Positions 2,969 to 25,784 of a DNA stretch of 64,000 nucleotides are shown here, in pieces (the first letter of the stretch is position 1; each line of letters opens with the position of its first letter). The DNA is taken from positions 124,001 through 188,000 of the forward strand of contig CAZCME010000004.1 of assembly GCA_964499705.1 (NCBI GenBank), read 5' to 3'. The translations under genes were made by a program, and so were the position numbers. The stretch comes from an uncultured bacterium (lineage in GTDB: Bacteria > UBA8481). The notes under the pieces are model-generated. The model was given only the letters and a program-made list of their open reading frames with translations. It had not been told where the DNA came from and did not search any database.

Positions 2969-3068
2969 ATATGGGGTTATACCCGGCGTATGGATATCCG
3001 ACCTTTAAATATTTCCGGCACCCAAGGTGTGTACCCCATATTAATCCCGCGCGTTGCCCCGCTACAAT
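2969..3068. promoter_or_regulatory. Divergent pair of 19-nt regulon boxes with -10-like elements
   Basis: 2969-2987(-) GCCGGGTATAACCCCATAT +21 nt TATAAC; 3023-3041(+) CAAGGTGTGTACCCCATAT +21 nt TACAAT (3063-3068). Confidence 0.7.
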
Positions 3069-3099
3069 GAAAGCCGGAGCAGAAAGGGACTTGCCTGTC

Positions 3100-3810
3100 A
3101 TGCAGCACATCATCGATCTGATACCCACTGTCCGCGTTCTCTTGATCTGGTCCCCTATCTCCGCACTCATCCTCTGGGGAGCGGCCCGATGCGCGGGAAC
3201 GTTTTGGTCTCGCGGAGTCCGGACGCCTTACACACGAAAAATATTTCACTTCATCATCTTCAGCTCCGCCGCGGCGATTCATTTCACCGCGGGAATCCAG
3301 GCGACGAGCGTCTTCGGAGGCGTGGTCGCTCTGGGCGTCCTCTTCGCCGTCGCCCGAGGAGACGGGTTTCCGTTTTACGAAGCGCTGGCGCGCCCGAGCG
3401 ATGCGCCGCGCCGGACATTCCATGTGATCGTGCCTCTTCTCGCGACGGCTGTCGGCGGGCTCGCCGCCAACTTTCTCGCGGGTCCGCTCGCGCCCGTCGG
3501 TTATCTCGTCGGAGGCTGGGGCGATGCGGTCGGGGAACCGGTCGGAACGAACTGGGGAAGGCATCGCTACCAGGTGCCGTCGGTGAAGGGTGTGAAATCA
3601 ACCAGATCATTCGAGGGATCCGCGGCCGTCTTCTTCGCGTCGCTCATTGCCGCCGCCATCGGCCTCGCGCTCCTGGATCAGGAACAGATATTCATGCGGG
3701 CCCTCGCCGTGGCGATTCCCGTCGTCATTGTGGAAGCGGTCTCCCCTCACGGCCTCGATAACTTCTTCGTGCAGGTGACCGCCGCCGGAGTCGCCGCATG
3801 GTCCCTGTAA
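3100..3810 (+). CDS. CTP-dependent polyprenol/phytol/diacylglycerol kinase-family membrane protein
   Basis: RKIFH, GWGDAVGEPVG..WGRH, RSFEGS, GLDNF motifs; multi-TM; start chosen at ATG 3100 after AAAGGGA. Confidence 0.8.
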   Translation: MQHIIDLIPTVRVLLIWSPISALILWGAARCAGTFWSRGVRTPYTRKIFHFIIFSSAAAIHFTAGIQATSVFGGVVALGVLFAVARGDGFPFYEALARPSDAPRRTFHVIVPLLATAVGGLAANFLAGPLAPVGYLVGGWGDAVGEPVGTNWGRHRYQVPSVKGVKSTRSFEGSAAVFFASLIAAAIGLALLDQEQIFMRALAVAIPVVIVEAVSPHGLDNFFVQVTAAGVAAWSL

Positions 3811-4565
3811 TCGGTATTCCACCACGGCGCGGCACCTGGAGCTTTGCGCTCGGCGTCGCCGGCATCATCGCCGCGATGTATTTCATCCTCGTCGTCATTC
3901 CCTTTAATGTCTTCGGACCGCGATTGCGCATCGTCGATGTGGCCATGCCGTCAGCCGATATCAAGCCGCTCAATCCTTTCCGCATCGGCCTCAATGTCGC
4001 CAACGACCGGTGGGGAGCGGGCGCGGCATACGTCGTCTTCTCCATTGAAGGTGAAACCGAGATCGAGGGAGCGGTCACGAGCATACCCGGGCGCGAGAAT
4101 CGGGACATATTCGTCAACGTCTCGATGGAGACCGGGGTCCGCAACGGATCGCTCATTCTTTATGACGCCATGCATGACAACCGGCGCATCGATGTCCGGC
4201 ACGGCGTACACGTCGTAGCCGGCTCTCTCGCGATTCGTCTCGTCGATGTCCAATATCCGAAAAATATTATCCGAGGAGAAACCATGGAGATCATCATGAA
4301 CTGCGCGGTCGACGATTCGGGTCCATTCGAAATTCTACCTGTGGCGATCGTGTACGACAGCGCTGGGAAAAGACCCGCCGAAACTAACGGGAAGGAAGTC
4401 ATGGTTACTCTTGGTCCCTGCGTCCTGAAACTCGCCGTGGCGACGGGTGATCTCGCACCCGGAACGCATCGGCTCACCGCGGGTCTCTTCGATCCGGATG
4501 AGATGGACTGGATCGATATCGAGCACAGGATCAGCCGTCGCGAATTTCGCGTGCTTGCCCGATGA
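3798..4565 (+). CDS. Membrane-anchored hypothetical protein (beta-rich, Ig-like?)
   Basis: N-terminal TM then beta-strand-rich sequence; overlaps both neighbours (operon-like). Confidence 0.6.
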   Translation: MVPVIGIPPRRGTWSFALGVAGIIAAMYFILVVIPFNVFGPRLRIVDVAMPSADIKPLNPFRIGLNVANDRWGAGAAYVVFSIEGETEIEGAVTSIPGRENRDIFVNVSMETGVRNGSLILYDAMHDNRRIDVRHGVHVVAGSLAIRLVDVQYPKNIIRGETMEIIMNCAVDDSGPFEILPVAIVYDSAGKRPAETNGKEVMVTLGPCVLKLAVATGDLAPGTHRLTAGLFDPDEMDWIDIEHRISRREFRVLAR

Positions 4566-5602
4566 AACGCGCCGCTCATCTGCTGGGATTCTGGCTCTGG
4601 CTTGGATTTTCCGGCGGCGCCATCGTTCTCCTGTTCGTCGCGACACCGATCGAAAGTTATCTCAAAGGTAAAGGCATGCCCCAGGTCAGGATCGACATGA
4701 TCCTCTCGGGAATCGCCCTGTCCTGGGTGGCCGCATCTTTTTTGGCCGCGAGGGCCGCGACCCGTCGCCTGCCGACTCCGCGCGGACGGTGGGCCGCGCA
4801 CGTCGCGGGCGCCACGGCCTGCGCCGTGGTCTTTACGATATTTCTTCAGGCGGGCGCCGGCGGCTTCGGATTCGCGCGGGCGGAAGAATCGAGCGAAGGC
4901 CGTTTCACCTTCGGTCCCTATCCCGATGAAATCGCGATCGCGCGCCTGAAACAAGAAGGCTACACCGGAATCATCTCGCTCCTGAATCCCCTCATTCCCT
5001 TCGAAGCGGTTCTGCTGGAGAAAGAAAGACAAGCGGTCGCCGCCGCCGGACTCAGCATGATCGAAGCCCCGATGCTCCCATGGGTGAGCTCCAATCGCGA
5101 ATCGCTGGACAAGCTCGTCCAGATGGCGTTCGCCGGCGCCAAAGATGGCAGTGCGAACAGCAAGCGTTACTACGTGCATTGCTATCTCGGACACCACCGC
5201 GTCGAACTGGCGCGGATCACGCTGATGGATGCCCAGGGAATCCGCGTTCAACCCGTCGACGCCGGTCTGCCGGAAGAATTCGAGCTCGGACCATTGACCT
5301 TGATCGGAGATTCGATCGTCGTCGGCCCGCTCCCGACGCAGGAGGAATATTTTCTGCTCCGAAGGGCCGGCGTGCGGCACATCGTGTCTCTCCTGAATCC
5401 CCGGACAGAATCAATCTGGTTGAAAGCAGATCAGGAAGCGGCGCGCGATCTGAATATGGAGCTGCACATACTTCCCGCGAACGATCCCTCCGAAGGGGCC
5501 GCGACGGCAAAAACGATTCGAGCTCTGCATGGAAAAGTCTATATCCACGCCTATCTCATCGACGAGCGCGCGCGGTTTGTCATGGAAAAATTGAATCGGT
5601 AA
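4562..5602 (+). CDS. Membrane protein with tandem Cys-based (PTP/dual-specificity-like) phosphatase domains
   Basis: 3 TM segments; domain 1 YVHCYLGHHR (Cx5R intact); domain 2 YIHAYLIDER (Cys lost); duplicated GP.P...IxSLLNP motifs. Confidence 0.75.
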   Translation: MKRAAHLLGFWLWLGFSGGAIVLLFVATPIESYLKGKGMPQVRIDMILSGIALSWVAASFLAARAATRRLPTPRGRWAAHVAGATACAVVFTIFLQAGAGGFGFARAEESSEGRFTFGPYPDEIAIARLKQEGYTGIISLLNPLIPFEAVLLEKERQAVAAAGLSMIEAPMLPWVSSNRESLDKLVQMAFAGAKDGSANSKRYYVHCYLGHHRVELARITLMDAQGIRVQPVDAGLPEEFELGPLTLIGDSIVVGPLPTQEEYFLLRRAGVRHIVSLLNPRTESIWLKADQEAARDLNMELHILPANDPSEGAATAKTIRALHGKVYIHAYLIDERARFVMEKLNR

Positions 5603-5676
5603 TGTTTTGCGCTTGAGTCTGATTGCGAAAACAGGCAAAGGCAGCAAGGATCCGGGCCTGGAGCGTGACAACAATA

Positions 5677-7271: not shown

Positions 7272-8633
7272 TTATGCCGCGGTCGCGATGTCGAGTCCGT
7301 AGCGTTGCAGAAGGTGCCTCATCGTGTTGCGGTGGATACCGAGCAGGCTCGCGGCTTCGGCGCGACGCCCCGAGGTCAGCGCGAGCGCGGCCTGGAGGTG
7401 TCCGCGCTTCACCGTGTCGAGCGTCGGAAAATTCGTGCGCGCCACACCACGCGCCGCGAAACCGGGCGCTATAACGCGGCGATCAGGCATCTCCGAGCGA
7501 ACATCCTCGGGAAGATGGTCGGGACGAATCGTACCGCCGCGCGAAAGTACAAGGGCACGCTCCATGGCGTTCTCCAGTTCCCGCACATTGCCGGGCCAGT
7601 CGTGACGCACCAGGAGATCCATCGCCGCCGGGTCGATCTCCCGATCCCCCGCGTCATGGCGGGCCAGATAACGAGCAACAAGCGGCGCGATCTCTTCCCT
7701 CCGCTCACGAAGAGGAGGAAGACGTACCAGAAGCACATTCAGGCGGTAGAAGAGATCCTCGCGAAACCGGCCGGCGGATACGGCGGCTTTCAAATCAGAA
7801 TTAGTTGCGGCAACAAGCCGGATATTGACCTTGATGGGACCGGCGCCGCCGAGCCGCTCGATCTCACGCTCTTGAATCGCGCGCAGCAGACGGACTTGTA
7901 CCTCTTCGGGAATCGTCCCGATCTCGTCCAGGAAAAGTGTTCCTCTCTCCGCGCGCTCGAACTTCCCCGTCCGCCGCGCCGCGGCGCCAGTGAAGGCGCC
8001 CTTCTCATGGCCGAAGAGTTCGGCCTCCAAAAGCGTAGCCGGAATCGCGCTGCAGTTCACCGCGATGAATGGTCCCTCCGAGCGATGCGAAAGACGGTGA
8101 ATGAGGCGGGCGATGACTTCCTTGCCGGTGCCGGATTCGCCGAGCAGCAGGATTGTCGAGTCCGTCGGAGCTGCGGCGCGGATGGTTTCGACGACTTCGC
8201 GCATGGCGGGAGACCGGGCGACGAGATCTTCCTCCGACACGCTTCGTCCCGCCGTCGCGCGCAGCCGCGCCAGTTCCTTCCGCGTCTCCAATGTCCGGAC
8301 CGCCCGGTCGACCAGAACGGATAGTTCGGTGGTACGAACGGGTTTAGTCATGTAGTGAAAGGCCCCTCGCCGCATCGCTTCGACTCCTTCCTCCACTTCC
8401 GCATAAGCGGTCACCAGAATGACCGGCGGAATATCTTCCCCGCCGCCGAGGAGATCCGTGCCGCGTCCGTCAGGGAGACGAATATCAGCGACGATCAAGT
8501 CGACTCCATCGCGCGCAGCCCGCGCGGCGGCGATGGAATGCGCGGCGCGCACTTCATGGCCCAGTGTCTCGAGCACTTCTCGCAGGATCTCGATATCCTG
8601 AGGTGAATCCTCGACCACCAGTATTTTCGCCAT
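7272..8633 (-). CDS. NtrC-family sigma54-dependent response regulator (REC-AAA+-HTH)
   Basis: REC (VVEDS, DIRLPD), GESGTGKE, GAFTGA, LFLDEIG, FREDLFYRL, WPGNVREL, Fis-type HTH. Confidence 0.95.
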   Translation of the reverse strand: MAKILVVEDSPQDIEILREVLETLGHEVRAAHSIAAARAARDGVDLIVADIRLPDGRGTDLLGGGEDIPPVILVTAYAEVEEGVEAMRRGAFHYMTKPVRTTELSVLVDRAVRTLETRKELARLRATAGRSVSEEDLVARSPAMREVVETIRAAAPTDSTILLLGESGTGKEVIARLIHRLSHRSEGPFIAVNCSAIPATLLEAELFGHEKGAFTGAAARRTGKFERAERGTLFLDEIGTIPEEVQVRLLRAIQEREIERLGGAGPIKVNIRLVAATNSDLKAAVSAGRFREDLFYRLNVLLVRLPPLRERREEIAPLVARYLARHDAGDREIDPAAMDLLVRHDWPGNVRELENAMERALVLSRGGTIRPDHLPEDVRSEMPDRRVIAPGFAARGVARTNFPTLDTVKRGHLQAALALTSGRRAEAASLLGIHRNTMRHLLQRYGLDIATAA

Positions 8634-8694
8634 CCCAACACCGCCCTTTCACTCGCACGACCAAGATGATGATAGGCAGGAATCCTCCCGGGCG

Positions 8695-8785
8695 ATATGG
8701 GGTACAGCCCCCAGCATCAGCGGAAAAGAACGGCGCGAGCGGTAGGTTTACTCCCCATAGCTGTTGAATCTTTTCCAGCTACAAT
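8695..8785. promoter_or_regulatory. Divergent pair of 19-nt regulon boxes with -10-like elements
   Basis: 8695-8713(-) TGGGGGCTGTACCCCATAT +20 nt TATCAT; 8742-8760(+) GTAGGTTTACTCCCCATAG +19 nt TACAAT. Confidence 0.7.
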
Positions 8786-8834: not shown

Positions 8835-8984
8835 ATGTTAGAAACGATCCTGGCAATAATTGTCATCATGTGGCTTCTGGGGATGGTGACTTCGTACACG
8901 CTCGGAGGATTTATCCATATTCTTCTCTTCCTCGCCGTCGCGACTGTGCTCATCCGCATCATTCAGGGCCGCAAGGCGTTCTGA
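8835..8984 (+). CDS. lmo0937-family small membrane protein
   Basis: MLETILAIIVIMWLLGMVTSYTLGGFIHILLFLAVATVLIRIIQGRKAF; AAGGAG RBS. Confidence 0.85.
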   Translation: MLETILAIIVIMWLLGMVTSYTLGGFIHILLFLAVATVLIRIIQGRKAF

Positions 8985-9310: not shown

Positions 9311-10102
9311 ATGATAACGCGACTAGGCGCAGGAGCGATCGCGTTTCTTCAGGAATTGAGCGGGCTCGTTTGGATGGCGCGCGAGACGGCATCCGAAACG
9401 CTGGAGCGGATTTCCATGGGCCGCGCTCCGATCCGTTGGTCGGACTTCTTTCTGCAAACACATCGCGTGGGTCCGGGCTCCGTTCCGCTCGTCACCCTCG
9501 TCACGCTCTTCTTCGGCATCACGATGGCCCTGCTGACGGGTTACCAGCTCCAGGCGTTCGGCCTCGTCTCCCTTGTGCCCGCGGTCGTTTCCGTATCGTT
9601 CACCCGGGAGCTGGGACCTCTTCTCACCGGCATCGTCGTCGCTTCGCGCGTCGGAGCCGCCTACACGGCGGAGCTGGGTTCGATGGTTGTGTCGGAAGAA
9701 GTCGAGGCCATCGAAGGAATGGGAATCGGTCCGCTTCGCCACCTCGTGATTCCCAGAGTGGCAGCCGTCGTTCTCCTCACACCCTGCCTCGCCGTGATCG
9801 CGGATCTCTCGGGGATCATGGGAGCGGCCTGGGTCTCGAGCGCGGCGCTGGATATTTCTTATGGTTACTTTCGGGACGAAGTGATGGCCAATCTGCTCGC
9901 GAAGGACGTTATTTCCGGAATCGTGAAGAGCCTCCTCTTCGGCGGCATCATCGGATGGATCTCCTGCTATAAGGGACTGGCCGTCCGTGGAGGCGCCGCC
10001 GCTGTGGGCGATGCGACAACATCCAGCGTCGTCGCGACCGTCACAACCGTCATCGGCTGCGATTCCATCTGCAATCTCTTTCTCGTCAACGTGCTCAAAT
10101 GA
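9311..10102 (+). CDS. mlaE: MlaE-family ABC transporter permease
   Basis: RELGPLLTGIVVASRVGAAYTAELGSM..SEEVEA; GAAAVGDATTSSVV. Confidence 0.93.
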   Translation: MITRLGAGAIAFLQELSGLVWMARETASETLERISMGRAPIRWSDFFLQTHRVGPGSVPLVTLVTLFFGITMALLTGYQLQAFGLVSLVPAVVSVSFTRELGPLLTGIVVASRVGAAYTAELGSMVVSEEVEAIEGMGIGPLRHLVIPRVAAVVLLTPCLAVIADLSGIMGAAWVSSAALDISYGYFRDEVMANLLAKDVISGIVKSLLFGGIIGWISCYKGLAVRGGAAAVGDATTSSVVATVTTVIGCDSICNLFLVNVLK

Positions 10103-10884
10103 CGGCGGAGAATCAGGAGCTGATGAAGATGACAGGGGTCAAGCTCTCGTTCGGAGACAAAGTCATTCTCAAGGATCTCGACCTCAGCCTGAACCGCGAA
10201 GAGACCCTGGTGATCATGGGGCCGAGCGGAACCGGAAAGAGCACGCTGCTCCGGCTCGTGCTGGGACTTCTTAAGGCGGACGAAGGATCCATCACCGTGA
10301 AGGGCGAGGAGACGACCCGGTTGCCGCGACCGCAACTGAACCGCCTGCGGGCCACGATCGGCATGGTGCATCAGAATTCGGCGCTGATCGGTTCGAGCAC
10401 CGTCGCCCGGAATCTCGCGTTTCCGCTCGAGGAGCTCTCGGAGAAATCATCCACGGAGATCGCGACCATCGTCGATGCGAAGCTCGCTCTCGTGGGCCTC
10501 AGCGACGCGAAGGACAAGCTTCCTTCCGAACTGAGCGGCGGCATGAAGAAACGCATCGGCCTGGCGCGAGCGCTCGTGCTGGAACCCGAGCTCGTGCTCT
10601 TCGACGAACCGACGGCGGGGCTCGATCCCGTCAACACCACGATCATCAATGAGCTCATCCTGGATCTGCGCCTGAAGCATCGCGTCACGTCCATCGTCGT
10701 CACGCACGAAATGGACAGCGCCTTCCGGATCGCCAGCCGCATGGTGCTCCTCGACGACGGCAAGATCGCCGAGGACGGCTCGAAGGAATCATTTCGCGAT
10801 TCCGGCAATCCCGCCGTTCAAAAGTTTCTAGGTCATTATTCATCGCACTTCAAGGAGGTGTCTCATGGAGATCCACAGAAATGA
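10099..10884 (+). CDS. mlaF: MlaF-family ABC transporter ATP-binding protein
   Basis: GPSGTGKS, ELSGGMKKR, FDEPTAGLDP, VTHEM. Confidence 0.93.
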   Translation: MTAENQELMKMTGVKLSFGDKVILKDLDLSLNREETLVIMGPSGTGKSTLLRLVLGLLKADEGSITVKGEETTRLPRPQLNRLRATIGMVHQNSALIGSSTVARNLAFPLEELSEKSSTEIATIVDAKLALVGLSDAKDKLPSELSGGMKKRIGLARALVLEPELVLFDEPTAGLDPVNTTIINELILDLRLKHRVTSIVVTHEMDSAFRIASRMVLLDDGKIAEDGSKESFRDSGNPAVQKFLGHYSSHFKEVSHGDPQK

Positions 10885-11428
10885 AATTTCAACCGGGATC
10901 CTGGTTATCGTCGCGCTGGGAATTCTGGGCGGCGCATTGGTCGCAATCGGCATGCCGGGTCTCATCAGACCGATGAATACGTTTCATGTCTCCTTCGACA
11001 ACGCGTCCGGCCTTCATCCCGGAGATCCCGTACTGCTGGCGGGCCGCAAGATCGGCGAGGTCACGGCATTGGAATCGCCCGTGCCGATGGATCGGCGCCC
11101 CAAGGGTCATGAAGATTACGAGGTCTTGATCGAAGTGAAGGTCGACAAAGCCGCCGGCGTACGGAGCGAAGTCACGGCGCGCCTATTTCAGCAGGGACTC
11201 ATGGGGCAGCAGGTGATCGACTTCATCGAGGGCAACGAATCGAGCCCCCTGGCGCCGGACCATTCCGTTTTCGTCGGCGAGCGCGTCCCTCAACTGACCG
11301 AAATGGCCGCGGAGAATCTCGATCGACTGACCGGGCCGAATTCCGACCTGGCCGGCATCATGAGAAACACGCGCCAGTTGACGGAGACCGTCAAGAAGGA
11401 ACCGTGGCGGCTGATCTGGAAAAAATAG
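10865..11428 (+). CDS. mlaD: MlaD/MCE-domain protein
   Basis: N-terminal TM, FDNASGLHPGDPVLLAGRKIGEV, GLMGQQVI. Confidence 0.9.
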   Translation: MEIHRNEISTGILVIVALGILGGALVAIGMPGLIRPMNTFHVSFDNASGLHPGDPVLLAGRKIGEVTALESPVPMDRRPKGHEDYEVLIEVKVDKAAGVRSEVTARLFQQGLMGQQVIDFIEGNESSPLAPDHSVFVGERVPQLTEMAAENLDRLTGPNSDLAGIMRNTRQLTETVKKEPWRLIWKK

Positions 11429-11507: not shown

Positions 11508-11586
11508 CTATGAGGTCATATCCTCCGTCACGAACCGCCATCAGGTGTGGACCCCATTTCGATTGCGAAACCTGCATGCCTATCAT
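11508..11586. promoter_or_regulatory. Regulon boxes upstream of Met/His-rich secreted protein gene
   Basis: 11541-11559(+) TCAGGTGTGGACCCCATTT +21 nt TATCAT; inverted copy 11508-11526(-) GGAGGATATGACCTCATAG without a clear -10. Confidence 0.6.
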
Positions 11587-11647
11587 GATGTTATGACGCA
11601 GCGTTATGGCAGACGCCGCCGCCGCGCATATTCCAGGAGGAAAAAGT

Positions 11648-12181
11648 ATGAAGAAATTCACGATTTATATTGTTCTGGCGATCCTCTGCATCGCCTCGGT
11701 GTCGGTTCAGGTCATCGCCGCGAAGATGAATGAGCATCGCGACATGACCAAACACATGCGGGACTCGGCTCGCGAACCGCACCACATGCTGGCGATGGCA
11801 TACAAGAGCAATCTGATGACATTCGCCAGGATCCTGCAACAGCCGGCCGGCCGGTCCGAAGCCGTGGACACGACCATGGCTCGATCGGCCGTCATGGAAA
11901 TGCGCCGTAGCTTCGAGATGCTGAAGCAGCACCATTCGGATCACGAGAGGACGATGAGCGACGACATGAAGGTGCGGATGTCGAAGATGACTCAACAGAT
12001 GGACACGAGAATCGCGACGATCGACAGCCGGCTCGACGAGTTGGAACTTGAGGTTTCCTACAGCGTGCTGAACGCGCGGAATATTTCCGAGCTTTCAAGG
12101 AAGATCGTTCATGAATGCAATCACATAGCTAGCATGCACACGCCCGCGCGAACCGGAGTGACCGGCCGCGCAAACCGCTGA
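11648..12181 (+). CDS. Secreted Met/His-rich helical hypothetical protein
   Basis: GGAGG RBS, signal peptide MKKFTIYIVLAILCIASVSVQVIA, many M/H residues. Confidence 0.75.
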   Translation: MKKFTIYIVLAILCIASVSVQVIAAKMNEHRDMTKHMRDSAREPHHMLAMAYKSNLMTFARILQQPAGRSEAVDTTMARSAVMEMRRSFEMLKQHHSDHERTMSDDMKVRMSKMTQQMDTRIATIDSRLDELELEVSYSVLNARNISELSRKIVHECNHIASMHTPARTGVTGRANR

Positions 12182-12263
12182 CGAGTCCGGCAGGGAATCG
12201 GAACCGAATTATCTTCCGACAACGGCTTATGGAAATTCATTTCAGCTCAAGAAGGAGCACACC

Positions 12264-12692
12264 ATGAAACGCAACGCATCGGCTGTATGGCAAGGCGGCC
12301 TCAAGGACGGCAAGGGCCGGATCTCGACGGGAAGCGGAGTGCTCTCCGAGGCGCCTTACGGATTCACGACGCGCTTCGAAAGCGAAGCGGGGACCAATCC
12401 CGAGGAACTCATCGCGGCGGCGCACGCCGGCTGTTTTTCGATGGCGCTCTCGGGTCAGTTGGAGGCCGCCCAGATGAAGGCGGAGAAGATCAGTGTCAAA
12501 GCGACCGTCAGCCTCGACAAGCTCGACCCGGGCTGGACGGTTACGGAAATCCACCTGGACGTCACCGCGAAAATACCCGGCGCGGACGCGGACAAGTTCA
12601 TGACGGCGGCCCAGGCCGCCAAAGTCGGGTGTCCGATATCGCGCCTGCTGGGCGCGGCAGCAAGCATCACCATGGATGCCCGTCTTGTTTGA
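12264..12692 (+). CDS. osmC: OsmC-family peroxiredoxin
   Basis: GTNPEELIAAAHAGCFSMAL; AKVGCPISR. Confidence 0.95.
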   Translation: MKRNASAVWQGGLKDGKGRISTGSGVLSEAPYGFTTRFESEAGTNPEELIAAAHAGCFSMALSGQLEAAQMKAEKISVKATVSLDKLDPGWTVTEIHLDVTAKIPGADADKFMTAAQAAKVGCPISRLLGAAASITMDARLV

Positions 12693-14207: not shown

Positions 14208-14253
14208 ACTTTAGGTGATTCGCCTCTTCAAGTGCTATGGGGTCTTAAACTCA
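14208..14253 (-). promoter_or_regulatory. Regulon box + -10 with no obvious downstream ORF
   Basis: 14235-14253(-) TGAGTTTAAGACCCCATAG +21 nt TAAAGT (14213-14208). Confidence 0.5.
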
Positions 14254-17501: not shown

Positions 17502-18219
17502 TTCGCGCTCCGAATTTAAGGGCCATCCGATAGATGGTCCTGGCGGATTGGTTCACCAGCCGCTGCGTCGCGAAAATTTCACTCTCGAGATCATCGGTGC
17601 TGGCTCGCGCCGATTTTTTCAATGTCAGGAGACGGAGATTGATCGAGATGAGGATCTGGGCGATTTCATCATGGAGCTGGCGGCTCGTCTTCTGCCGTTC
17701 GTTCTCCTGCGACGTGAGAATCTGGTGCGTCTGTTTCCGCATGCTTCTCTGAAGGCGGCCTGATTCTTTCAACAGACCGGCGCTATAGCTGCCGCTCTTC
17801 ACGAGCGCCTTTTCGGCCGCTTTGCGACGGGCGATGCCATGTTTCAAGTTCCGCGTCGATGCCGTCGACTCCCGCGTGCGCTGGTCCAGCGATTGAATCA
17901 CTTTTCGGACATGGACATCGTCCTTCACGGCCGCGCTGTGCGTCTTCTCGACCGGGACGATCGTCTCGGCGAAAAATGCCCTGGCCCGATCGTTTCTTTG
18001 CGGGGCCGACATCGATGCTCCACCGGCGGAGACCAGATTCTTCATGGACTGGCGGTGAATGCGCGCCATGTCCAGCGTCTCCATCTTCAGGGCCATCGCC
18101 TCGCGGCCCAGCTTTAACGCAGGCCGCATGCTCGCCTTCGGCCCCGACCGTGTGTGCCTGCGAAGCGCGGTCTGATACCGACGCGCCCATCTGTTCTGCC
18201 TATCGTTCAATTTCGCCAT
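17491..18219 (-). CDS. Paralogous RsbU_N-like + HisKA_3 protein lacking the ATPase domain
   Basis: Collinear with downstream kinase (ALKLGREA..METLDMARIH; QENERQKTSRQLHDEIAQ) but ends after the DHp helices. Confidence 0.8.
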   Translation of the reverse strand: MAKLNDRQNRWARRYQTALRRHTRSGPKASMRPALKLGREAMALKMETLDMARIHRQSMKNLVSAGGASMSAPQRNDRARAFFAETIVPVEKTHSAAVKDDVHVRKVIQSLDQRTRESTASTRNLKHGIARRKAAEKALVKSGSYSAGLLKESGRLQRSMRKQTHQILTSQENERQKTSRQLHDEIAQILISINLRLLTLKKSARASTDDLESEIFATQRLVNQSARTIYRMALKFGARNEK

Positions 18220-18228
18220 TTAATGACA

Positions 18229-18272
18229 GGATACGCGATAACCGGCTCCTCTGCTGTGGGTAATAACCCTAC
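18229..18272 (-). promoter_or_regulatory. Regulon box in front of the two-component operon
   Basis: 18254-18272(-) GTAGGGTTATTACCCACAG +20 nt TATCCT, ATG 8 nt later. Confidence 0.7.
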
Positions 18273-20059
18273 TACCGCCGCTCGATGAATTCGGCCCGCC
18301 GGTTCATCTGTCGTCCTTCGGGATGATCGCTTCCATCCCTCATGGTGTTCGGCGCGATCGGAACGGCTTCGCCCTGGGATACGGTGCTGAGACGTGTCGG
18401 GCTGATCCCGAATCTCTGCACGAAGAAATCCCGAACGGACTCCGCGCGCCTCATCCCCAGCTCCATGTTGTATTCTTCGCTGCCCTTCGCGTCGCAATGT
18501 CCTTCCAGAAGGAAATCGAGCTCCGGTTCGTCGCGCATGATCCGCGCCACCGTCAACATCGTGTCGATGGCGTCGGGTCGGATGACGGATTCGTCAAAGT
18601 CGAAATGGATGCGGAACCGCCTCGCTTCGCGCACGGTCACCGTGATGATCTCGGCGTCCGTCGCTTTTCCGCCCGGACCCGTGGCGACCAATTCGTATTC
18701 GCGAGTCGCCGTCGGGCAGACCTCTTTGGTTCCGTCCGCTGCGACCACGTCGCCATCGAGCGTGATCTTCGTCGCGTTCCTCGTGTTCCAACTGAGCAGA
18801 ACGCATTCTCCCTTGTAGATCTGGTTCGTGTTGGCGGAGAGATCGGCCGTCGGCGCCGGCGGCGCCACAACAGTCAAGAGAGCAGACGATGTCGCGCTGC
18901 CTCCGGGACCCGTCGCGACCATGTCATACGTTTGAGACGATGTCGGGCAGACTTCGCGGGAACCATCGAGCGCCTCAGATCGGCCGTCGATCGTCACCTT
19001 CGTCGCATCCGTCGAGTTCCAGGAGAGCGTCGCGCATTCTCCTCGCACGATCGTGGATGGAGCGACCGAGATCCGCGCGGTCGGCACGGGCGGCGGCGGC
19101 GGCGGTTCCGTGACGGTGACCGTCGTCGATGCGTTCGCTCTTCCTCCGGGTCCTCGAGCCACGAGGTCATAGCTCCGGGTTGAAGTCGGCGAAACGATCA
19201 TGGATCCCCTGAGCGCGACAACATCACCGTTGATCTCGGCTTCGGTCGCGTTTTCGGAGTCCCACTTCACGGTCGTGCTCTGGCCGCGTTCGATGGTGGA
19301 CGGATCGGCTGAAATCCACGCCGTCGGCGCGGGCGGAGGCGGCGGCGGAGGCGGCGCCATGACGATGATCGTCGCGGCGTCGGTCGCTTGTCCGCCTTCG
19401 CCTGTCGCCACGAGATTGTAGGTCGTCCTGACCGTCGGCGTCACAATCATGTTGCCGGACAGCGCTACCGATTTTCCGTTGATCATCGCTCGATCCGCAT
19501 GGGATGTGGTCCAGGATACCGTGCTGGCAGCACCGGTTATGATGCCGGAGGGATCGGCGGTGATCCGGGCGGTCGGAGCCTCCGCCGCATCGGCGGCATA
19601 AGGAACGATCTGGTGATCGAGCGCCCAGCTTGCATCCGCGATGTATCGTTGGATCAGAGAAATGTTGGCTCGGCGCCCTTTCTGCAGTTCGTGCGCGACG
19701 ATATGGAGATCAGCTTCCGCGCGGTCGACGCGCCACTGGTGTTCGGGAGCGTGCGCCGGCCGCAGAATGGCCTGGCGGAGACGACGGCGGAGTTCGGTGT
19801 ATTGCGCCGCATACGCCCGATTCGCCGCGTAGTCTTCGGAAGAGAGCGCCGGAGGAACGGTAGGATTACCCGCGCCGAGATCACGGAGCATCTGTTCCGC
19901 GCGGCGATCGCCTTGAATCTGCATCGCTGCCACGGCCCGCGCGAAGTACGTGCTCCGCGAAGCCCCCGCCTTCGCCAGGGCCTGTGCTTCGGGCGCAACA
20001 ACAAATGCCGCGGCAAAAAGCGCACAGAGCGCTAGTCCAATCCAGATCTTTTGTTTCAT
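18272..20059 (-). CDS. OmpA-family peptidoglycan-binding protein with four tandem Ig/PKD-like repeats
   Basis: Signal peptide; 4 repeats PTA.I.A.P..I..G....SW....A...I.G..VA..G...V.PT....Y.LVATG.GG with poly-Pro linkers; C-terminal IHFDFD..EGHCD..GSEEYN.ELG.RRA..NRR. Confidence 0.9.
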   Translation of the reverse strand: MKQKIWIGLALCALFAAAFVVAPEAQALAKAGASRSTYFARAVAAMQIQGDRRAEQMLRDLGAGNPTVPPALSSEDYAANRAYAAQYTELRRRLRQAILRPAHAPEHQWRVDRAEADLHIVAHELQKGRRANISLIQRYIADASWALDHQIVPYAADAAEAPTARITADPSGIITGAASTVSWTTSHADRAMINGKSVALSGNMIVTPTVRTTYNLVATGEGGQATDAATIIVMAPPPPPPPPAPTAWISADPSTIERGQSTTVKWDSENATEAEINGDVVALRGSMIVSPTSTRSYDLVARGPGGRANASTTVTVTEPPPPPPVPTARISVAPSTIVRGECATLSWNSTDATKVTIDGRSEALDGSREVCPTSSQTYDMVATGPGGSATSSALLTVVAPPAPTADLSANTNQIYKGECVLLSWNTRNATKITLDGDVVAADGTKEVCPTATREYELVATGPGGKATDAEIITVTVREARRFRIHFDFDESVIRPDAIDTMLTVARIMRDEPELDFLLEGHCDAKGSEEYNMELGMRRAESVRDFFVQRFGISPTRLSTVSQGEAVPIAPNTMRDGSDHPEGRQMNRRAEFIERR

Positions 20060-20150: not shown

Positions 20151-20196
20151 AATGTACACGATTGGGCTGTCCTTTGACTCCGGGGTAAAACCCTAC
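20151..20196 (-). promoter_or_regulatory. Regulon box upstream of OmpA repeat protein
   Basis: 20178-20196(-) GTAGGGTTTTACCCCGGAG +21 nt TACATT. Confidence 0.65.
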
Positions 20197-20232: not shown

Positions 20233-20928
20233 TCAGAAATTCAGTTTTACGGTTCCTCTCAACTTGAAAATGTTCAACTCCGCCGTATAAATCCTGCCGC
20301 TGTCGTCCCGGAATGATCCTCCCAATCCGTTGCGGCTGACGCCGAGATTGAATCGATCGGCGTAGGTGACATACATCTTGGGATCGTCGAGCTGGGAGAC
20401 GTCGTATCCGACGCGGAACATCGTCGACATGAGATAATCGGTCATTCCGACCGGCTTGACGAGAAAAAGGGTTCCGAGAATCGCTGCCGTGCCCGCCGTC
20501 GTAACGATGATTCCTTCTCTAAAATCGGACTTCTCGATTCCCAGGGAACCCGCGGACTCTTCGGCGCGTTCGAACTTATCCTGAGCCTTCCGAAACGCCT
20601 GAAGGTAATAGTCGAAGGGATTGTCGATCGAACGGCGATGCATCTTCTGGATCTCGCGCGCGACTTTATTGATAGCCCTGTTCGCCATTCCTCTTCGCGG
20701 GGAGCCTGTGGCCGCGGGGGCCTCGACATCAAAGACGCTCGATGTTTGAATCGAGGGCTCGCTCTGGTTGAATTCCGAACTCATGGCGCCCCGCGCGTAA
20801 GGCTCCGGCGCCTGTCGCGCCGCGCTCGTGGTTTCATATTCTCCGATAGGAGGTGTTGCCGCGACAGCCGTTGCGAAGAGGATCCCCGCCGCCGCGACGC
20901 GGAAACCATGGAGGCAGATGAGCATCAT
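20233..20928 (-). CDS. Hypothetical exported protein, C-terminal Phe
   Basis: Signal-like N-terminus; amphipathic beta C-terminus ending GTVKLNF. Confidence 0.6.
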   Translation of the reverse strand: MMLICLHGFRVAAAGILFATAVAATPPIGEYETTSAARQAPEPYARGAMSSEFNQSEPSIQTSSVFDVEAPAATGSPRRGMANRAINKVAREIQKMHRRSIDNPFDYYLQAFRKAQDKFERAEESAGSLGIEKSDFREGIIVTTAGTAAILGTLFLVKPVGMTDYLMSTMFRVGYDVSQLDDPKMYVTYADRFNLGVSRNGLGGSFRDDSGRIYTAELNIFKLRGTVKLNF

Positions 20929-20958: not shown

Positions 20959-21177
20959 CTACCTCTCGTCTTCCGGCGTCAGGACATATCCCGCCCCTGC
21001 TCCGACGACTCCGCCGACGACCGCACCGGCCACCGGAGCTCCTACCGTGCTACCGACCACGGCGCCGGCCACTGTGCCGACTCCCGCGCCGATAGCGGTA
21101 TTCTTCTGAACCGTCGAGCATCCGACCGTGGTTGCGATGAGGATTCCCGCCGCAAGTGCTGACAATCTCTGCTTCAT
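20959..21177 (-). CDS. Glycine-zipper small lipoprotein (OsmB/YMGG-like)
   Basis: Lipobox TVGC then AIGAGVGTVAGAVVG...GAVVGGVVGAGAG. Confidence 0.85.
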   Translation of the reverse strand: MKQRLSALAAGILIATTVGCSTVQKNTAIGAGVGTVAGAVVGSTVGAPVAGAVVGGVVGAGAGYVLTPEDER

Positions 21178-21228
21178 TTCATTCACCAGCTTTCATAAGT
21201 AACTATCCGCGACGCGACCGACCTGCCG

Positions 21229-21292
21229 CTATAGGTGAGAACCCACGTGGGTGAAGACCCCATAGCGACCGAGTTTTCCACTGCGGTAGAAT
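21229..21292. promoter_or_regulatory. Back-to-back regulon boxes (near-palindrome) driving divergent genes
   Basis: CTATAGGTGAGAACCCAC|GTGGGTGAAGACCCCATAG (21229-21265); plus-strand -10 TAGAAT 21287-21292. Confidence 0.75.
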
Positions 21293-21512: not shown

Positions 21513-22178
21513 ATGATCCATGCCTGCATTCTCGCGCTGACCATCCTCACAACGGCCGTCAACGCCGACACATCGAAATACGACCAGAAGATCAGCCGCG
21601 CCAATGAAGTCATGGTGGAAGCCATAACGCGCGAAGGCGCCGGCATTCCTCCCCAACTATTGCGGCAGTGCAAGGCGATCATGATCTTCCCCGGAGTGAT
21701 CCGCGCCGGTTTCTTCTGGGGCGGCCGTTTCGGCGAGGGGATCACGGTGGCGAGAACGGAGAGCGGCGCATGGTCTGCGCCCGCGTTCTACTCCGTGGTC
21801 GGAGGAAGCTGGGGACTGCAGATCGGCCTCGAATCCGTGGATGTGGTCATGCTTGTCATGAACCAGCGCGGATGGGAAGCGCTCCTCAAGCAGAAGTTCA
21901 CGCTCGGCGCGGATATCTCCGCGACCGCCGGCCCCAACACGGCATCGGCGCAGAGCGATATCGACATCGCGCTTAAAGCCGACATCGTATCCTACGCGCG
22001 AGCCCGCGGTCTGTTCGCCGGCCTGGCTTTGAACGGAGCACGGATCGCTTCGAGCACGCAGACGAACCGGAATTTCTACGGAAGAGATCTCTCTGTGGAC
22101 GACATCCTGGTCCGCAATCTTCCGCCGATGCCCGCCTCTGCGGCTTCGCTCATGGTGACGCTCTCACCGTATAAATAA
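21513..22178 (+). CDS. Lipid-binding SYLF (Ysc84-like) domain protein
   Basis: IPPQLL..CKAI.IFP...AGFFWGGRFGEG, WSAPAF, GGSWGLQIG, YARARGLFAG, NRNFYG. Confidence 0.92.
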   Translation: MIHACILALTILTTAVNADTSKYDQKISRANEVMVEAITREGAGIPPQLLRQCKAIMIFPGVIRAGFFWGGRFGEGITVARTESGAWSAPAFYSVVGGSWGLQIGLESVDVVMLVMNQRGWEALLKQKFTLGADISATAGPNTASAQSDIDIALKADIVSYARARGLFAGLALNGARIASSTQTNRNFYGRDLSVDDILVRNLPPMPASAASLMVTLSPYK

Positions 22179-22278: not shown

Positions 22279-23574
22279 TCATTCGCAGGGCAGATTCATG
22301 GTGAAGACGACCCATCGGCCCGGGCGATTCGCGGCGGCAAGCGTTCCGCCGTGCGCGGTCACGATCTGCTGCGCGATGTAAAGCCCGATACCCAGCCCGG
22401 CGAGTTGCGTTGCCGGATTCTCCCTTGTGTACAGTTCGAAAATGCGTGACAGATGTTCTTCGGGAATGTCGTTGCCCTGGCTTGCGACCGTCAGCCGAGC
22501 CCGGCCTCCCTCCAACGCCGCTTCGATTCTGATCGGCTTGCCACGGCCGAACCTTATCGCGTTCGACAGAAGGTTATCAATGACCTGGTCGATACCTTCC
22601 TTGTCCCATAGCCCCGCGATACTGGGCTCCAATTCGAGTTCCAGATCGCATCCGTTCCTCGACAGTTCGGACGCATGCCGCGCGCAAACCTCTCGAGCAA
22701 TCTTCACGAGATCGCAAGGGGATCGGCGCAGTTCCATCCGGCCGGAGTTGTATCGCGAAAGATGGAGCAGGTTATTGACGAGAAGAATCATGCGGCGCGC
22801 CAACCGTTCGATCAGCTTCATGCCTTGCTCCGTCTGCGAGGGATCAGTCGGATGACGCCGCATCTCTTTCTCCATTCCTTCCACCTGGATGAGGAGCGCT
22901 CCCAATGGGGTCCTCAAGTTATGCGCTGCGGCGGTGATGAACTCATCGCGCTGCTTGAGAGCTTCCTCGGCTTTCTGCCTTGCGGCCAGCTCGCCGGCCA
23001 GGAGCAGGGATCGCTGCTCCTCGATATGCTTCTGCGCGGTGATATCGCTCATGGCCAGGCGACAGAGAAGCGCGCCCGTCGTATCATGCCGCGCCACGGT
23101 CGCATCGACGCGCGCCCAGAACATTCCACCGGACGGTCGCTTCATGCGGAGTTCAAAGGCCTGAGCGTCGCCGGTCGCGAAAAGTTTCTTCCGATGAAGG
23201 TAATAGACGCCCAGGTCTTCGCTATCGATGAAGCGGGTGAAGAGTTGCCGCGCCAGATCACCGCGGGAAAGCGCCAGCATGGCGCCAGCTCGAAAGTTCG
23301 CTTCAAGGATCATGCTTTTTTCGCTCAGGGTGAAATAGGCAACCGGAGCCATGTCATAAAGATCGAAGTATCGCGCTCGCGCGGACTCCTGTGCGGCATG
23401 AGCCATGAGCAGTTCCTCGTTCTGCATCTCCAGTTCCACATGGTAAACGCGCAGTTCTCGGAGAAGCGTCTCCCCCTCTTCGACCGGCATCGTCCCCATG
23501 TCGGAGACGGTCATGGCAGACAGCTTCTCCTCTGCTTTTTGGCGCAAATCAGCCCTCCCCGCCATCGACGTCAT
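22279..23574 (-). CDS. PAS-domain sensor histidine kinase
   Basis: ELRVYHVELEMQNEEL, YFDLYDMAP PAS, AHNLRTPL, NLLSNAIRF, GLGIGLYI. Confidence 0.9.
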   Translation of the reverse strand: MTSMAGRADLRQKAEEKLSAMTVSDMGTMPVEEGETLLRELRVYHVELEMQNEELLMAHAAQESARARYFDLYDMAPVAYFTLSEKSMILEANFRAGAMLALSRGDLARQLFTRFIDSEDLGVYYLHRKKLFATGDAQAFELRMKRPSGGMFWARVDATVARHDTTGALLCRLAMSDITAQKHIEEQRSLLLAGELAARQKAEEALKQRDEFITAAAHNLRTPLGALLIQVEGMEKEMRRHPTDPSQTEQGMKLIERLARRMILLVNNLLHLSRYNSGRMELRRSPCDLVKIAREVCARHASELSRNGCDLELELEPSIAGLWDKEGIDQVIDNLLSNAIRFGRGKPIRIEAALEGGRARLTVASQGNDIPEEHLSRIFELYTRENPATQLAGLGIGLYIAQQIVTAHGGTLAAANRPGRWVVFTMNLPCE

Positions 23575-24920
23575 GACGCTGAGCCGTTCATGGTAAGATC
23601 CGTCACCTTGTTCTGAAGCTCCGTATTGACTGTCATAAGTTCCTCGTTGATCGAATGCATTTCCTCCCTGGATGTCTCCAGATCTTCATTCGCTGTCTGC
23701 AGTTCCTCATTGATCGATTGCATCTCTTCATTCGCCGTCCGCAATTCTTCGCGGGACGTTTCCAGCTCTTCGATGGTCGTCTGGAGTTGCTCATCCCTGG
23801 CCCTTATGTCCAGCGCATGCGCGGTGATACCCGCATAGCGTTCAGCGGCGGGATGGACCGCGACGGTCTTTTCCTCAGGGAGAATGCCGGCGCGAGTCAA
23901 CTGAGGCGGCGTGGAGACGACCGGCGGAGCTGGCCATGAACCGTCCACCTGCAACGGGAGCGAACTGGAATCGTCGGACCTTCGAAGGAAAATCCTGCTC
24001 CTGTTGTCGAGCGCTGAAAAAAGCGTCGGAAACTCGATCACGTTTTCAGAGGTCCCGAGAATCAGCAATCCGTCAGGACGCAATGCACGATGGAAGAGAG
24101 GAATGATCCGATTCTGAAGTTCCGCATTCAAATAGATGAGCACATTGCGGCAGGTGATGAGATCGATGCGCGAGAGAGGCGGATTCTTGATCACATCATG
24201 CACGGAAAAGACAAGGGTATCGCGAACAGAATCGCGGAGGCGATATGTGCCGTCCTCCGCGCTCTTTGAGAAAAATCGCAAGAGCCTCTCGGGTGAGACG
24301 TCGGTCTCGATGCCGGCGGGATAGACGCCTGCGCTGGCGGTATCCACGGCCTGCTTGTCGACGTCCGTGGCGAAGATCTGGATCTGAAAAGTTTGTTTCA
24401 TCTTTTCCATTTGCTCCAGGATGAGAATGGCGATGGAGCAGGCTTCTTCGCCGGTGGAGCAACCGCAGATCCAGACGCGGATCGTCGAACCCGCTGGTTT
24501 GCGGGCGAAGAGCCGCGGGATTGCTTCCTGCTCGATCGTCGCGAAAACCTCGGCGTCGCGAAAGAAGCCGGTTACGTTTATGAGGATGTCCTGGAAGAGT
24601 GCACAGGCCTCCTCCGGGATATCCCGCAGGAAGCGCAGATAATCGTCGGGATCTTCCAAAGACGCGGCCTCCATCCGCCGCCGGATCCGGCGCACGAGAG
24701 AATTCTCCTTGTATTGGGAAAAATCATGTCCGGTGCGCTCCCGCAGGAGCGCGCAGATCTTCCTGATCGTGATATCGGGGACATCACCAGTCGACGGCAG
24801 CGCGCCCTGCGCATGATGATGCGCAGGGGCGCGCGATATGAGAGCCGGGGTCGAATCAGTGCTTGATGCCACGTCCGAGCTCTTCAATGGCTTCGCCGAC
24901 TTTTCGCTTTGCCGTGCCAA
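23571..24920 (-). CDS. CheR-type methyltransferase with coiled coil; reduced CheB-CheR fusion derivative (start uncertain)
   Basis: RTGHDFSQYK, LINVTGFFRD, GCSTGEEA, FATDVD, CRNVLIY, EELETSREEL..NEEMQS.NEELQ repeats; listed TTG start overlaps csbD. Confidence 0.8.
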   Translation of the reverse strand: MARQSEKSAKPLKSSDVASSTDSTPALISRAPAHHHAQGALPSTGDVPDITIRKICALLRERTGHDFSQYKENSLVRRIRRRMEAASLEDPDDYLRFLRDIPEEACALFQDILINVTGFFRDAEVFATIEQEAIPRLFARKPAGSTIRVWICGCSTGEEACSIAILILEQMEKMKQTFQIQIFATDVDKQAVDTASAGVYPAGIETDVSPERLLRFFSKSAEDGTYRLRDSVRDTLVFSVHDVIKNPPLSRIDLITCRNVLIYLNAELQNRIIPLFHRALRPDGLLILGTSENVIEFPTLFSALDNRSRIFLRRSDDSSSLPLQVDGSWPAPPVVSTPPQLTRAGILPEEKTVAVHPAAERYAGITAHALDIRARDEQLQTTIEELETSREELRTANEEMQSINEELQTANEDLETSREEMHSINEELMTVNTELQNKVTDLTMNGSAS

Positions 24921-25062
24921 TGCCCGCCTGGGCCTTCCCCTTGATCTGCTGCTTTTCGCCCTTGGCCGTCAGCTCGGGTGCGCTTGCGGCTTTGCCGATA
25001 ATCTGCTTGGCGTTTCCCTTGACCTGTTCGTACTTGCCCTTGATCTCATCCTTATTCCACAT
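24856..25062 (-). CDS. CsbD-family general stress protein
   Basis: MWNKDEIKGKYEQVKGNAKQIIG...KGEKQQIKGKAQAGIG; AAGGAG RBS. Confidence 0.9.
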   Translation of the reverse strand: MWNKDEIKGKYEQVKGNAKQIIGKAASAPELTAKGEKQQIKGKAQAGIGTAKRKVGEAIEELGRGIKH

Positions 25063-25214
25063 GATTGTCGCTCCTTTATCGATTTTGATTGTGCTCGAAC
25101 TATCCGTATTCAATACGCCACCATAAAGCTTCAGAATCCGCAAATGCCCGTGAACATATTCAGGATGCGTCAAGCGACACCGGATGCGTTCCGCGGAGTT
25201 CATCGTCGGAACCG

Positions 25215-25733
25215 CTAGATGCCCTGGGTCTTGTTATGCGCCAAGAGCTTGAGAAGGCCGTTGACGGCGAGATGAATCAACATGTAAATGATGAAGGCCA
25301 TGAAGTACGAAAGCATCAAGCGCATTTCGCCGGCCGCCGGATTCGGCAGAACTCCGAGGAACGGCCCCAGAACCGGTCTTGAGATGGCGTCGACGATCTG
25401 CTTGATCCCGCTGGACTCGCGCGCGGCGACAAGTTCCATGAGAATCTCGAGGCCGATGATTCCGTACACCAGGTAGAAGGCGTAGTTCAGAAATTCGGAG
25501 ATGCGTGAAACAGATCTCGCCCGCGCGATTTCATCCTCGGTCGTGGCTATCTCGCGGATCGCCTTCTGCTTCAGATGCCGTGCGACACCTTCCGCCTGAG
25601 CCTGATCGGCGGACGTGATCTCCACACTTCGCGCGATTTCGCCGTGAATCTCGGTGCGCACTTCGCCTTTGATCGCTTCATGCTCGCGAAGCCTCTCGGA
25701 TTCATCGATCGCAACCTTGTCGTTTGTGTTCAT
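25215..25733 (-). CDS. YggT-family membrane protein
   Basis: Two TMs flanking VDAISRPVLGPF; ATG 6 nt after TATGCT. Confidence 0.75.
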   Translation of the reverse strand: MNTNDKVAIDESERLREHEAIKGEVRTEIHGEIARSVEITSADQAQAEGVARHLKQKAIREIATTEDEIARARSVSRISEFLNYAFYLVYGIIGLEILMELVAARESSGIKQIVDAISRPVLGPFLGVLPNPAAGEMRLMLSYFMAFIIYMLIHLAVNGLLKLLAHNKTQGI

Positions 25734-25739
25734 GAACAA

Positions 25740-25784
25740 AGCATAGAGTTCGGCGAGCCCGGCCGATACAGGGTCAAACCCTAC
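25740..25784 (-). promoter_or_regulatory. Regulon box upstream of yggT-like/csbD
   Basis: 25766-25784(-) GTAGGGTTTGACCCTGTAT +20 nt TATGCT. Confidence 0.7.

Follow-up and report, generated by a model that had tools for sequence, protein, structure and literature searches.

What reads a short DNA box that recurs before genes for stress and envelope proteins? The question is raised by a stretch of 64,000 nucleotides from an uncultured bacterium (C4:124001-188000), called the window here, in which about 12 copies of a 19-nt box stand at a fixed distance from -10 elements. The genome of origin, G000, comprises 4.67 Mb in 45 contigs with 60.9% G+C; G002 and similar labels denote other genomes, L055 and similar labels denote fetched loci, and positions are those of the window unless a contig is named. 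An earlier note on this DNA attributed the boxes to a NarL/FixJ-type regulator encoded at 15673-16392 (minus strand). From the sequence comparisons reported below, we consider it likely that the box is the operator of this regulator, which would act through it to activate a stress and envelope regulon.

The 12 box sequences listed in the earlier note were all found where it had placed them. To call them near-consensus was generous: six lie within three mismatches of the proposed consensus, and the remaining six have 4-7. The six matches at up to three mismatches compare with 0.03 expected from 100 shuffles. Eleven boxes are followed 19-21 nt downstream by the hexamers that had been listed, nine of them strict TAnnnT and two imperfect (TATAAC after 2969(-) and GATAGT after 21229(-)); at 11508(-) there is no -10 hexamer at the box distance. 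No box with a -10 was found right of 25.8 kb within the window, as had been claimed. Genes were called heuristically, from the longest open reading frame (ORF) and third-position G+C and without a gene finder; some starts, and the minus-strand ORFs within 12287-14140, are probably wrong. The boxes and the genes that follow them are:

2969..2987, minus strand: box 1, TATAAC at 2942-2947 after 21 nt; precedes an ORF at 1876-2859(-) and a GAF-GGDEF gene at 596-1879(-)
3023..3041, plus strand: box 2, TACAAT at 3063-3068 after 21 nt; precedes an ORF at 3100-3810(+)
8695..8713, minus strand: box 3, TATCAT at 8669-8674 after 20 nt; precedes an NtrC-type sigma-54 activator gene at 7272-8633(-)
8742..8760, plus strand: box 4, TACAAT at 8780-8785 after 19 nt; precedes a DUF5670 gene of 49 amino acids (aa) at 8835-8984
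11508..11526, minus strand: weak box in inverted orientation, no -10; starts 33 nt ahead of box 6
11541..11559, plus strand: box 6, TATCAT at 11581-11586 after 21 nt; precedes an ORF at 11606-12181(+)
14235..14253, minus strand: box 7, TAAAGT at 14208-14213 after 21 nt; aims into the 3' end of the convergent gene 12287-14140(+)
18254..18272, minus strand: box 8, TATCCT at 18228-18233 after 20 nt, ATG 8 nt on; promoter of the regulator operon
20178..20196, minus strand: box 9, TACATT at 20151-20156 after 21 nt; precedes an OmpA-domain gene at 18272-20059(-)
21229..21247, minus strand: box 10, the weakest, GATAGT at 21202-21207 after 21 nt; precedes a glycine-zipper gene at 20959-21186(-) and an ORF at 20233-20928(-)
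21247..21265, plus strand: box 11, TAGAAT at 21287-21292 after 21 nt; ATG at 21299, 6 nt on (leaderless-like)
25766..25784, minus strand: box 12, TATGCT at 25740-25745 after 20 nt; ATG at 25733, 6 nt on (leaderless-like)

Because a matrix trained on the window's own sites would be circular, G000 was scanned with a matrix trained solely on 185 sites of other genomes, at a cut-off of 10 bits. Twenty matches scored at least 10 bits, and 15 of them lay in C4:99-150 kb. All 12 matches with TAnnnT at 19-21 nt fell inside that interval, and the reversed genome gave nine matches, none with TAnnnT. The genome-wide motif scan that the earlier note had proposed shows box matches concentrated in one stretch and exceeding the reversed-genome control. 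The matrix regained 11 of the 12 sites, missing 21229(-), and three further sites were found left of the window, at C4:99054(-), 99639(-) and 102154(-). The resulting 15 sites all lie within one 51-kb stretch of the 4.67-Mb genome. On both strands of the genome together, the core word ACCCCATA was found 25 times, five of them in the window; ACCCCAT words with TAnnnT at the right distance are found almost only on contig C4, including two left of the window. Counted on both strands, ACCCCAT itself occurs 178 times in the genome against about 600 expected from base composition, and the genome seems to avoid it outside the regulon.

The box is a dyad of 15-16 bp that comes in two spacing classes. 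One, found in many relatives, is TGGGGTG-AA-CACCCCA (in general TGGGGTG-NN-CACCCCA), two heptamers with 2 bp between them; the other is TAGGGTT-N-CACCCCA, with 1 bp between. The promoter-proximal half is much better conserved. Palindromic variants are common, and a single palindrome can serve divergent -10s, as at 12182(-)/12185(+) in locus L057. From the end of the box to the hexamer the spacer measures 19 nt at one site, 20 nt at five and 21 nt at eight, together 14 of the 15 sites. The sites are intergenic, with a gene start 6-103 nt past the hexamer, the sole exception being 14235(-). At 18254(-), 21247(+) and 25766(-) the ATG follows the hexamer by 6-8 nt. The related loci described below contain 251 strict box matches, of which 119 are followed by TAnnnT after 19-21 nt (20 nt in 76 cases, 21 nt in 36 and 19 nt in 7), and in 19 of these 119 an ATG stands 6-7 nt past the hexamer, against about two for each other offset. 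This enrichment fits leaderless transcripts and supports the identification of the hexamer as a -10 element.

Between the end of the conserved ACCCCAT core and the -10 lie 22-24 nt. If transcription starts about 7 nt after the hexamer, the box spans about -52 to -33, its dyad is centred near -44 and its final three bases reach into the start of the -35 position. A consensus scan, which gave eight sigma-70-type -35/-10 matches, found no sigma-70-type -35 at the ten box promoters between 2500 and 22000. The arrangement is that of a class II promoter, as the earlier note had argued: a dyad that abuts or overlaps the -35 position, a spacing to the -10 that is held at 14 of the 15 sites, and a weak or absent -35.

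The operon behind box 18254(-) codes for five proteins, among them the regulator, so that the regulator's own operon carries a box, again as the note had stated. Its genes, in the order of transcription, are:

17491-18219, minus strand: kinase-like protein, 242 aa, RsbU_N and HisKA_3 (Pfam)
16356-17501, minus strand: histidine kinase, 381 aa, RsbU_N, HisKA_3 (2.2e-14) and HATPase_c (5e-13)
15673-16392, minus strand: NarL/FixJ-type regulator with REC and GerE domains, 239 aa (PF00072 3.2e-29, PF00196 3.1e-20), the proposed box binder
14307-15642, minus strand: tail of the operon, transglutaminase-like gene 14677-15642 and PemK/MazF-like gene 14307-14762

The kinase gene overlaps the regulator gene. 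In the regulator, the phospho-acceptor aspartate D70 is invariant in 13 aligned sequences, and the recognition helix IKTVEKHRDHLM is nearly invariant in 11 aligned orthologues from several phyla. Its closest solved relatives are VraR (E = 3.7e-44), DesR, NarL (3.1e-30) and DevR (1.3e-25). It passes no NCBIfam equivalog cut-off, the best model being MctR (202.7 against 300 bits). Orthology with NarL was rejected, as model NF007935 scores 135.5 bits against a cut-off of 250. The kinase-like protein, or pseudo-kinase, is first in the operon, is 44% identical to the adjoining kinase and keeps the H-box histidine; a domain search found no ATPase domain in it. This truncated twin may be a phosphatase or a heterodimer partner of the kinase. 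The two proteins account for the only two matches to RsbU_N (PF08673) in the genome. The gene that closes the operon encodes a PemK/MazF-like toxin domain.

Species-representative genomes were scanned with the regulator, which gave 79 loci (1.08 Mb) with regulators of 55-73% identity. Most are titled Verrucomicrobiota, Kiritimatiellota or Lentisphaerota, and a few are labelled otherwise; such labels can be wrong for metagenome bins. At a cut-off of 13 bits the loci contained 284 box matches against 7 in the reversed sequences, and 142 against 0 when TAnnnT at 19-21 nt was required. The box was present in 68 of the 79 loci. Where enough DNA was available, 35 of 51 loci had a same-strand box at most 3.2 kb upstream of the regulator, with a mode of 1.9-2.0 kb that matches the arrangement of pseudo-kinase, kinase and regulator in the window. 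When all called genes of the 79 loci were clustered, kinase and regulator occurred in 56 loci each, and the next cluster, the pseudo-kinase, in 18. The comparison thus supports the proposal of the earlier note that an envelope and stress regulon is run here by a two-component system without a dedicated sigma factor, the box recurring in 68 of 79 loci with only kinase and regulator conserved beside it.

The first ORFs behind the boxes (198 ORFs for 304 matches from 80 sources) were also clustered. The largest cluster was the pseudo-kinase, with 27 sources, and the second consisted of two-receiver proteins, with 15. One representative of each of 100 clusters was searched against Pfam. Among the families found were BON, PRC-BON, CsbD, DUF883, YflT, Hsp20, Cpn10 (GroES), GrpE, OsmC, ferritin-like, dodecin, entericidin, DUF5670, DUF3309, DUF3185, DUF948, a mechanosensitive channel, MlaA, MlaE, L,D-transpeptidase, fatty-acid desaturase, KaiC and one sigma-70 gene. 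Judged by these predicted domains, the content is the make-up of a general stress regulon. In locus L052 (6371-8155), which belongs to the Planctomycetes-Verrucomicrobia-Chlamydiae (PVC) group, a box precedes a KaiC gene and the adjoining gene for an HPr-CBM48 fusion is also behind a box, a link between the regulon and a clock-type ATPase.

Five genomes of the host phylum were compared. Outside G000 a close regulator was found only in G002, which belongs to another genus (66% identity); in the other three, relatives of the regulator were at best 33-41% identical or absent, and word-pattern counts in these genomes (G003, G004 and G001) were like their controls. Contig C24 of G002, which is locus L055 among the 79, has the same box at the same spacing at about 11 sites. 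Four orthologous units of G002 keep the box despite a changed gene order: the kinase operon, the OmpA gene, the unit of the 174-aa protein and CsbD, and a 191-aa gene.

As a test of the association, 201 genomes were sampled evenly from the phylum of one Verrucomicrobial locus, the only unbiased test among these comparisons. The regulator was scored at E <= 1e-55, and the box by at least four occurrences of the word pattern GGGT-N3/4-ACCCCAT. The regulator was present in 21 of the 201 genomes. At least four pattern matches were found in 13 of the 21 regulator-positive and in 12 of the 180 regulator-negative genomes (Fisher p = 7e-9, related genomes not being independent), and the backwards pattern reached four in 3 of 201 genomes. 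In five further genomes the matches cluster on the contig of the regulator, for example 10 of 10 in G005. Three regulator-positive genomes with few strict matches were inspected: G177 has four variant boxes with a -10 near the regulator gene, G159 one strong box and G069 one weak match. One regulator-negative Verrucomicrobial genome with 30 matches, G203, was set aside as an unrelated case: its matches come from a 23-bp palindromic repeat in DNA of 52% G+C, with no -10. This palindrome, TCAATGGGGTCWGACCCCATTGA, has about 15 perfect copies, seven of them in one stretch of 52% G+C (L132, G203:C4:40001-60000; also L133 and L134).

Several features point to the regulator as an activator that acts next to the -35 position: the symmetry of the site, its constant spacing from the -10, the lack of a -35, the box at the regulator's own operon, and the co-occurrence of box and regulator across genomes. 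In the proposed mechanism the neighbouring kinase, with its RsbU_N, HisKA_3 and HATPase_c domains, would phosphorylate the regulator, and a dimer of the regulator would bind the 15-16 bp dyad centred about 44 bp upstream of the start. The bound dimer would recruit RNA polymerase together with a sigma-70-type factor, by which the TAnnnT -10 would be recognised, and the box at the regulator's own operon would create positive feedback. Its predicted targets form about a dozen transcription units, in G000 all within the 51-kb stretch. The products would be small proteins of envelope and stress functions, the Mla lipid transporter, OmpA-like, glycine-zipper and CsbD proteins, and further signalling proteins (NtrC-type, GGDEF, and CheR with a PAS kinase). 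The box is probably where a widespread stress switch binds.

Several observations weigh against this assignment. The related loci were fetched by means of the regulator, so co-location of box and regulator among them is partly built in. The left half-site occurs at two spacings (three or four nucleotides between GGGT and ACCCC), which is unusual for a single dimer. For most G000 targets, the loci of other phyla have no counterpart in the 10 kb on either side of the regulator. Among the 201 genomes, 8 of the 21 with the regulator have fewer than four strict matches, and eight genomes without it have at least five; G154 and G163 have no relative of the regulator at E <= 1e-25, and the best relatives in G089 and G152 reach only 2.1e-29 and 2.1e-53. 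Finally, contig C6 of G000 encodes two paralogues with a similar recognition helix, TVETHRDHI.

Genomes with pattern matches and no regulator orthologue found, and the paralogues on C6, would suit a model in which another DNA-binding protein, encoded elsewhere, reads the box and the 15673 regulator is merely a member of the regulon; the target genes, including that of the regulator, would carry the box under such a model too. We regard this as unlikely. No other regulator recurs near the boxes; after kinase and regulator, the next cluster is that of the pseudo-kinase (18 loci). The symmetry of the box suits a GerE-type dimer, the recognition helix, like the box, hardly varies, and the pattern tracks the regulator in the 201 genomes.

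It is distinctly improbable that the regulator, once bound to the box, represses or counteracts activation and that the promoters fire on its departure. None of ten box promoters has a usable -35, and the site lies upstream of the -35 position, not over the -10 or the start; although a protein bound there could block polymerase, since the box extends 3 bp into the -35 position, a spacing to the -10 held within 1 nt across phyla suggests contact between protein and polymerase.

The distance between box and -10 also bears on another possibility, that a dedicated alternative sigma factor recognises the box as its -35 element; one candidate is a group-2-like gene at C4:88699-89832. General stress regulons elsewhere are run by sigma factors, this gene lies about 9 kb left of the first box, and in locus L077 a box precedes a sigma gene. 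The ACCCCAT core, however, ends too far from the -10 for a -35 of the sigma-70 family, and the box is a dyad of which single palindromes serve divergent promoters. The best G002 relative of the sigma factor (59%) is on another contig, genomes of the PVC group have only matches of about 40-44%, and no sigma cluster recurs in the 79 loci. A sigma factor as reader of the box is therefore very unlikely. The candidate protein scores below all NCBIfam cut-offs. Its gene (377 aa) belongs to a minus-strand group at C4:88699-93277, 6-10 kb left of the first box, together with genes for a hybrid histidine kinase (829 aa), a 122-aa ORF and a receiver protein. No box was found in the upstream region of the hybrid kinase in G000; the G002 counterpart (77% identity) has one.

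That the box is a non-regulatory dispersed repeat, such as a REP-like sequence or the relic of a mobile element, is scarcely credible: G203 does carry its superficially similar 23-bp palindrome about 15 times with no -10, but the boxes are intergenic, oriented to genes and at a fixed distance from the -10, and they persist at orthologous promoters whose flanks have diverged.

The proposed activation by a NarL-family regulator at the box invites comparison with known systems. NarL and NarP of E. coli bind '7-2-7' sites of inverted heptamers. The present system shares with them a REC and GerE regulator with a HisKA_3 kinase and a 16-bp site composed of two inverted heptamers 2 bp apart; it differs in its half-sites, which read GGGG...CCCC rather than CCCC...GGGG, in a second spacing class with 1 bp, in a kinase with RsbU_N input and no nitrate sensor, and in targets that belong to stress and envelope functions rather than respiration. 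DosR/DevR of Mycobacterium tuberculosis is a NarL-family regulator with HisKA_3 kinases, a G/C-cored palindrome of about 20 bp, many genes for survival of stress, and positive autoregulation. The likeness is a stress regulon under a two-component system rather than a sigma factor. DevR is nevertheless more distant from the regulator than VraR is, the box sequence, spacing and gene content differ, and the kinases here have RsbU_N and not GAF-haem domains. LuxR and TraR are one-component regulators that bind a ligand, and the lux box is centred near -42.5. In these systems, too, a dimer with a GerE-type helix-turn-helix occupies a dyad that adjoins a weak -35 or overlaps it, and the spacing to the -10 is fixed, whereas the input here would be phosphorylation of the receiver and the probable centre is nearer -44.

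General stress regulons are run by sigma-B in Bacillus, sigma-S in E. coli and EcfG in the Alphaproteobacteria. The content of the related loci resembles theirs in CsbD, BON/OsmY-like, YflT, DUF883, Hsp20, GroES, GrpE, OsmC, ferritin-like, entericidin and mechanosensitive-channel genes. The master regulator proposed here is not a sigma factor. PMC12143880 places RsbU_N kinases beside stressosome genes in Proteobacteria. In the kinase described here RsbU_N is fused to a histidine kinase, which recalls stressosome and RsbT-RsbU_N signalling (PMC9237108), and the domain hints at control by an RsbT-like partner. The system differs in that no stressosome genes were found beside the kinase (RsbR_N was not searched for) and in that a truncated twin of the kinase is first in the operon. 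The only HATPase_c_2 and STAS proteins of the island are encoded about 25 kb away, at C4:111995-115643, and other HATPase_c_2 genes are scattered in the genome.

How did the system reach this genome? In a quick tree with a midpoint root, the G000 and G002 regulators are sisters (Shimodaira-Hasegawa-like approximate likelihood-ratio test, SH-aLRT, 94) within a Verrucomicrobial group, the surrounding nodes being weak. With the regulator in only two of the five host-phylum genomes, its lateral gain from a PVC donor can reasonably be proposed, though it is unproven. G+C is 59.3% in the island and 60.4% in the contig, with no clear compositional break. A tRNA-Ser(TGA) gene lies at 25878-25964(+), about 90 nt beyond the last box and just where the boxes stop, and a second, non-identical tRNA-Ser(TGA) gene lies 68 kb to the left, at C4:81738-81824 (L047:1738-1824). 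Use of tRNA-Ser as an integration site was considered and rejected: the two genes differ at several positions, their flanks cannot be aligned, and no att-type repeat was found. Pfam scans of selected ORFs gave no integrase.

Among the genes of G000, the kinase has counterparts in 67 of the 79 loci, the pseudo-kinase in 47, the PAS kinase in 16, the DUF5670 gene in 14 and the CheR gene in 8. Such counts indicate that the regulator and its predicted operator are conserved and that membership of the putative regulon is lineage-specific. We tentatively suggest, as a possibility that we hold to be somewhat doubtful, that general stress responses in Verrucomicrobiota, Kiritimatiellota and Lentisphaerota have a master switch, formed by the RsbU_N kinase, its truncated twin, the NarL-type regulator and the box, with input perhaps from an RsbT-like partner. 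It would have moved laterally to the host phylum and there nucleated a self-contained 51-kb 'stress island', with each target close to the regulator. If true, the switch would play the part of sigma-B, sigma-S and EcfG, but through a two-component activator. Control of general stress responses by sigma factors is textbook knowledge, and the PVC group includes abundant soil, freshwater and gut bacteria.

A literature search, with subscription journals largely outside its coverage, found no description of the box or of such a stress regulon or master regulator in the PVC group, and a search with the letters of the box found primer-like matches only. The regulon, its operator and their breadth appear to be undescribed; the mechanism, a NarL-family dimer activating beside the -35, is ordinary. 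A conserved pair of operator and regulator would make stress regulons predictable from sequence in hundreds of uncultured genomes, and box and regulator form a testable protein-DNA pair. RsbU_N, an input domain known from sigma-B signalling, appears here wired to a two-component output, and the tight clustering of the predicted targets round the regulator in G000 would make it a clean natural example of a portable regulon.

The targets in the window include genes of stress and envelope types, namely CsbD, OmpA, glycine-zipper, DUF5670, Mla and SYLF genes. In the target list of the earlier note, the GGDEF, NtrC, Mla, OmpA, SYLF and CsbD genes were found. Two of its labels were not confirmed: Pfam gave no family for the 'lipid kinase/phosphatase' at 3100-5602, even at E 0.5, and 'YggT' corresponds merely to a sub-threshold Pfam hint. 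Behind box 4 the DUF5670 gene is followed by genes for MlaE (9311-10102), an ABC (ATP-binding cassette) ATPase (10099-10884) and MlaD (10865-11428). The weak site 11508(-) may be an auxiliary site. Box 14235(-) has no clear target, the sole ORF behind it being an unsupported 84-aa frame at 13850-14104. A gene for a pyridine-nucleotide disulfide oxidoreductase, 12287-14140(+), also lies behind box 6, and box 11 is followed by a 67-aa ORF and a SYLF/Ysc84 gene at 21513-22178(+).

Behind box 12 are genes for a 174-aa membrane protein (25215-25739(-)), CsbD (24856-25203), a CheR-type methyltransferase (23571-24920) and a PAS histidine kinase (22279-23574). The last two, at 22279-24920(-), end the operon, and relatives of the CheR protein occur in eight related loci. 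Their pairing recalls RsbM and RsbK of Bacillus cereus, and CheR and the PAS kinase may feed back into the pathway.

The three boxes left of the window precede genes for a REC-GGDEF-REC protein, a small secreted protein and, ahead of a phosphate-selective-type porin gene, two unknown ORFs of 200 and 126 aa. Between these boxes and the window, downstream of box 2969(-) on the minus strand of C4:111995-123894, lies a type IV pilus/type II secretion cluster with genes for T2SSE, T2SSF, PilM, PilO and secretin, followed by genes of the partner-switching type for a STAS protein, a HATPase_c_2-STAS-REC fusion and a REC-PP2C protein.

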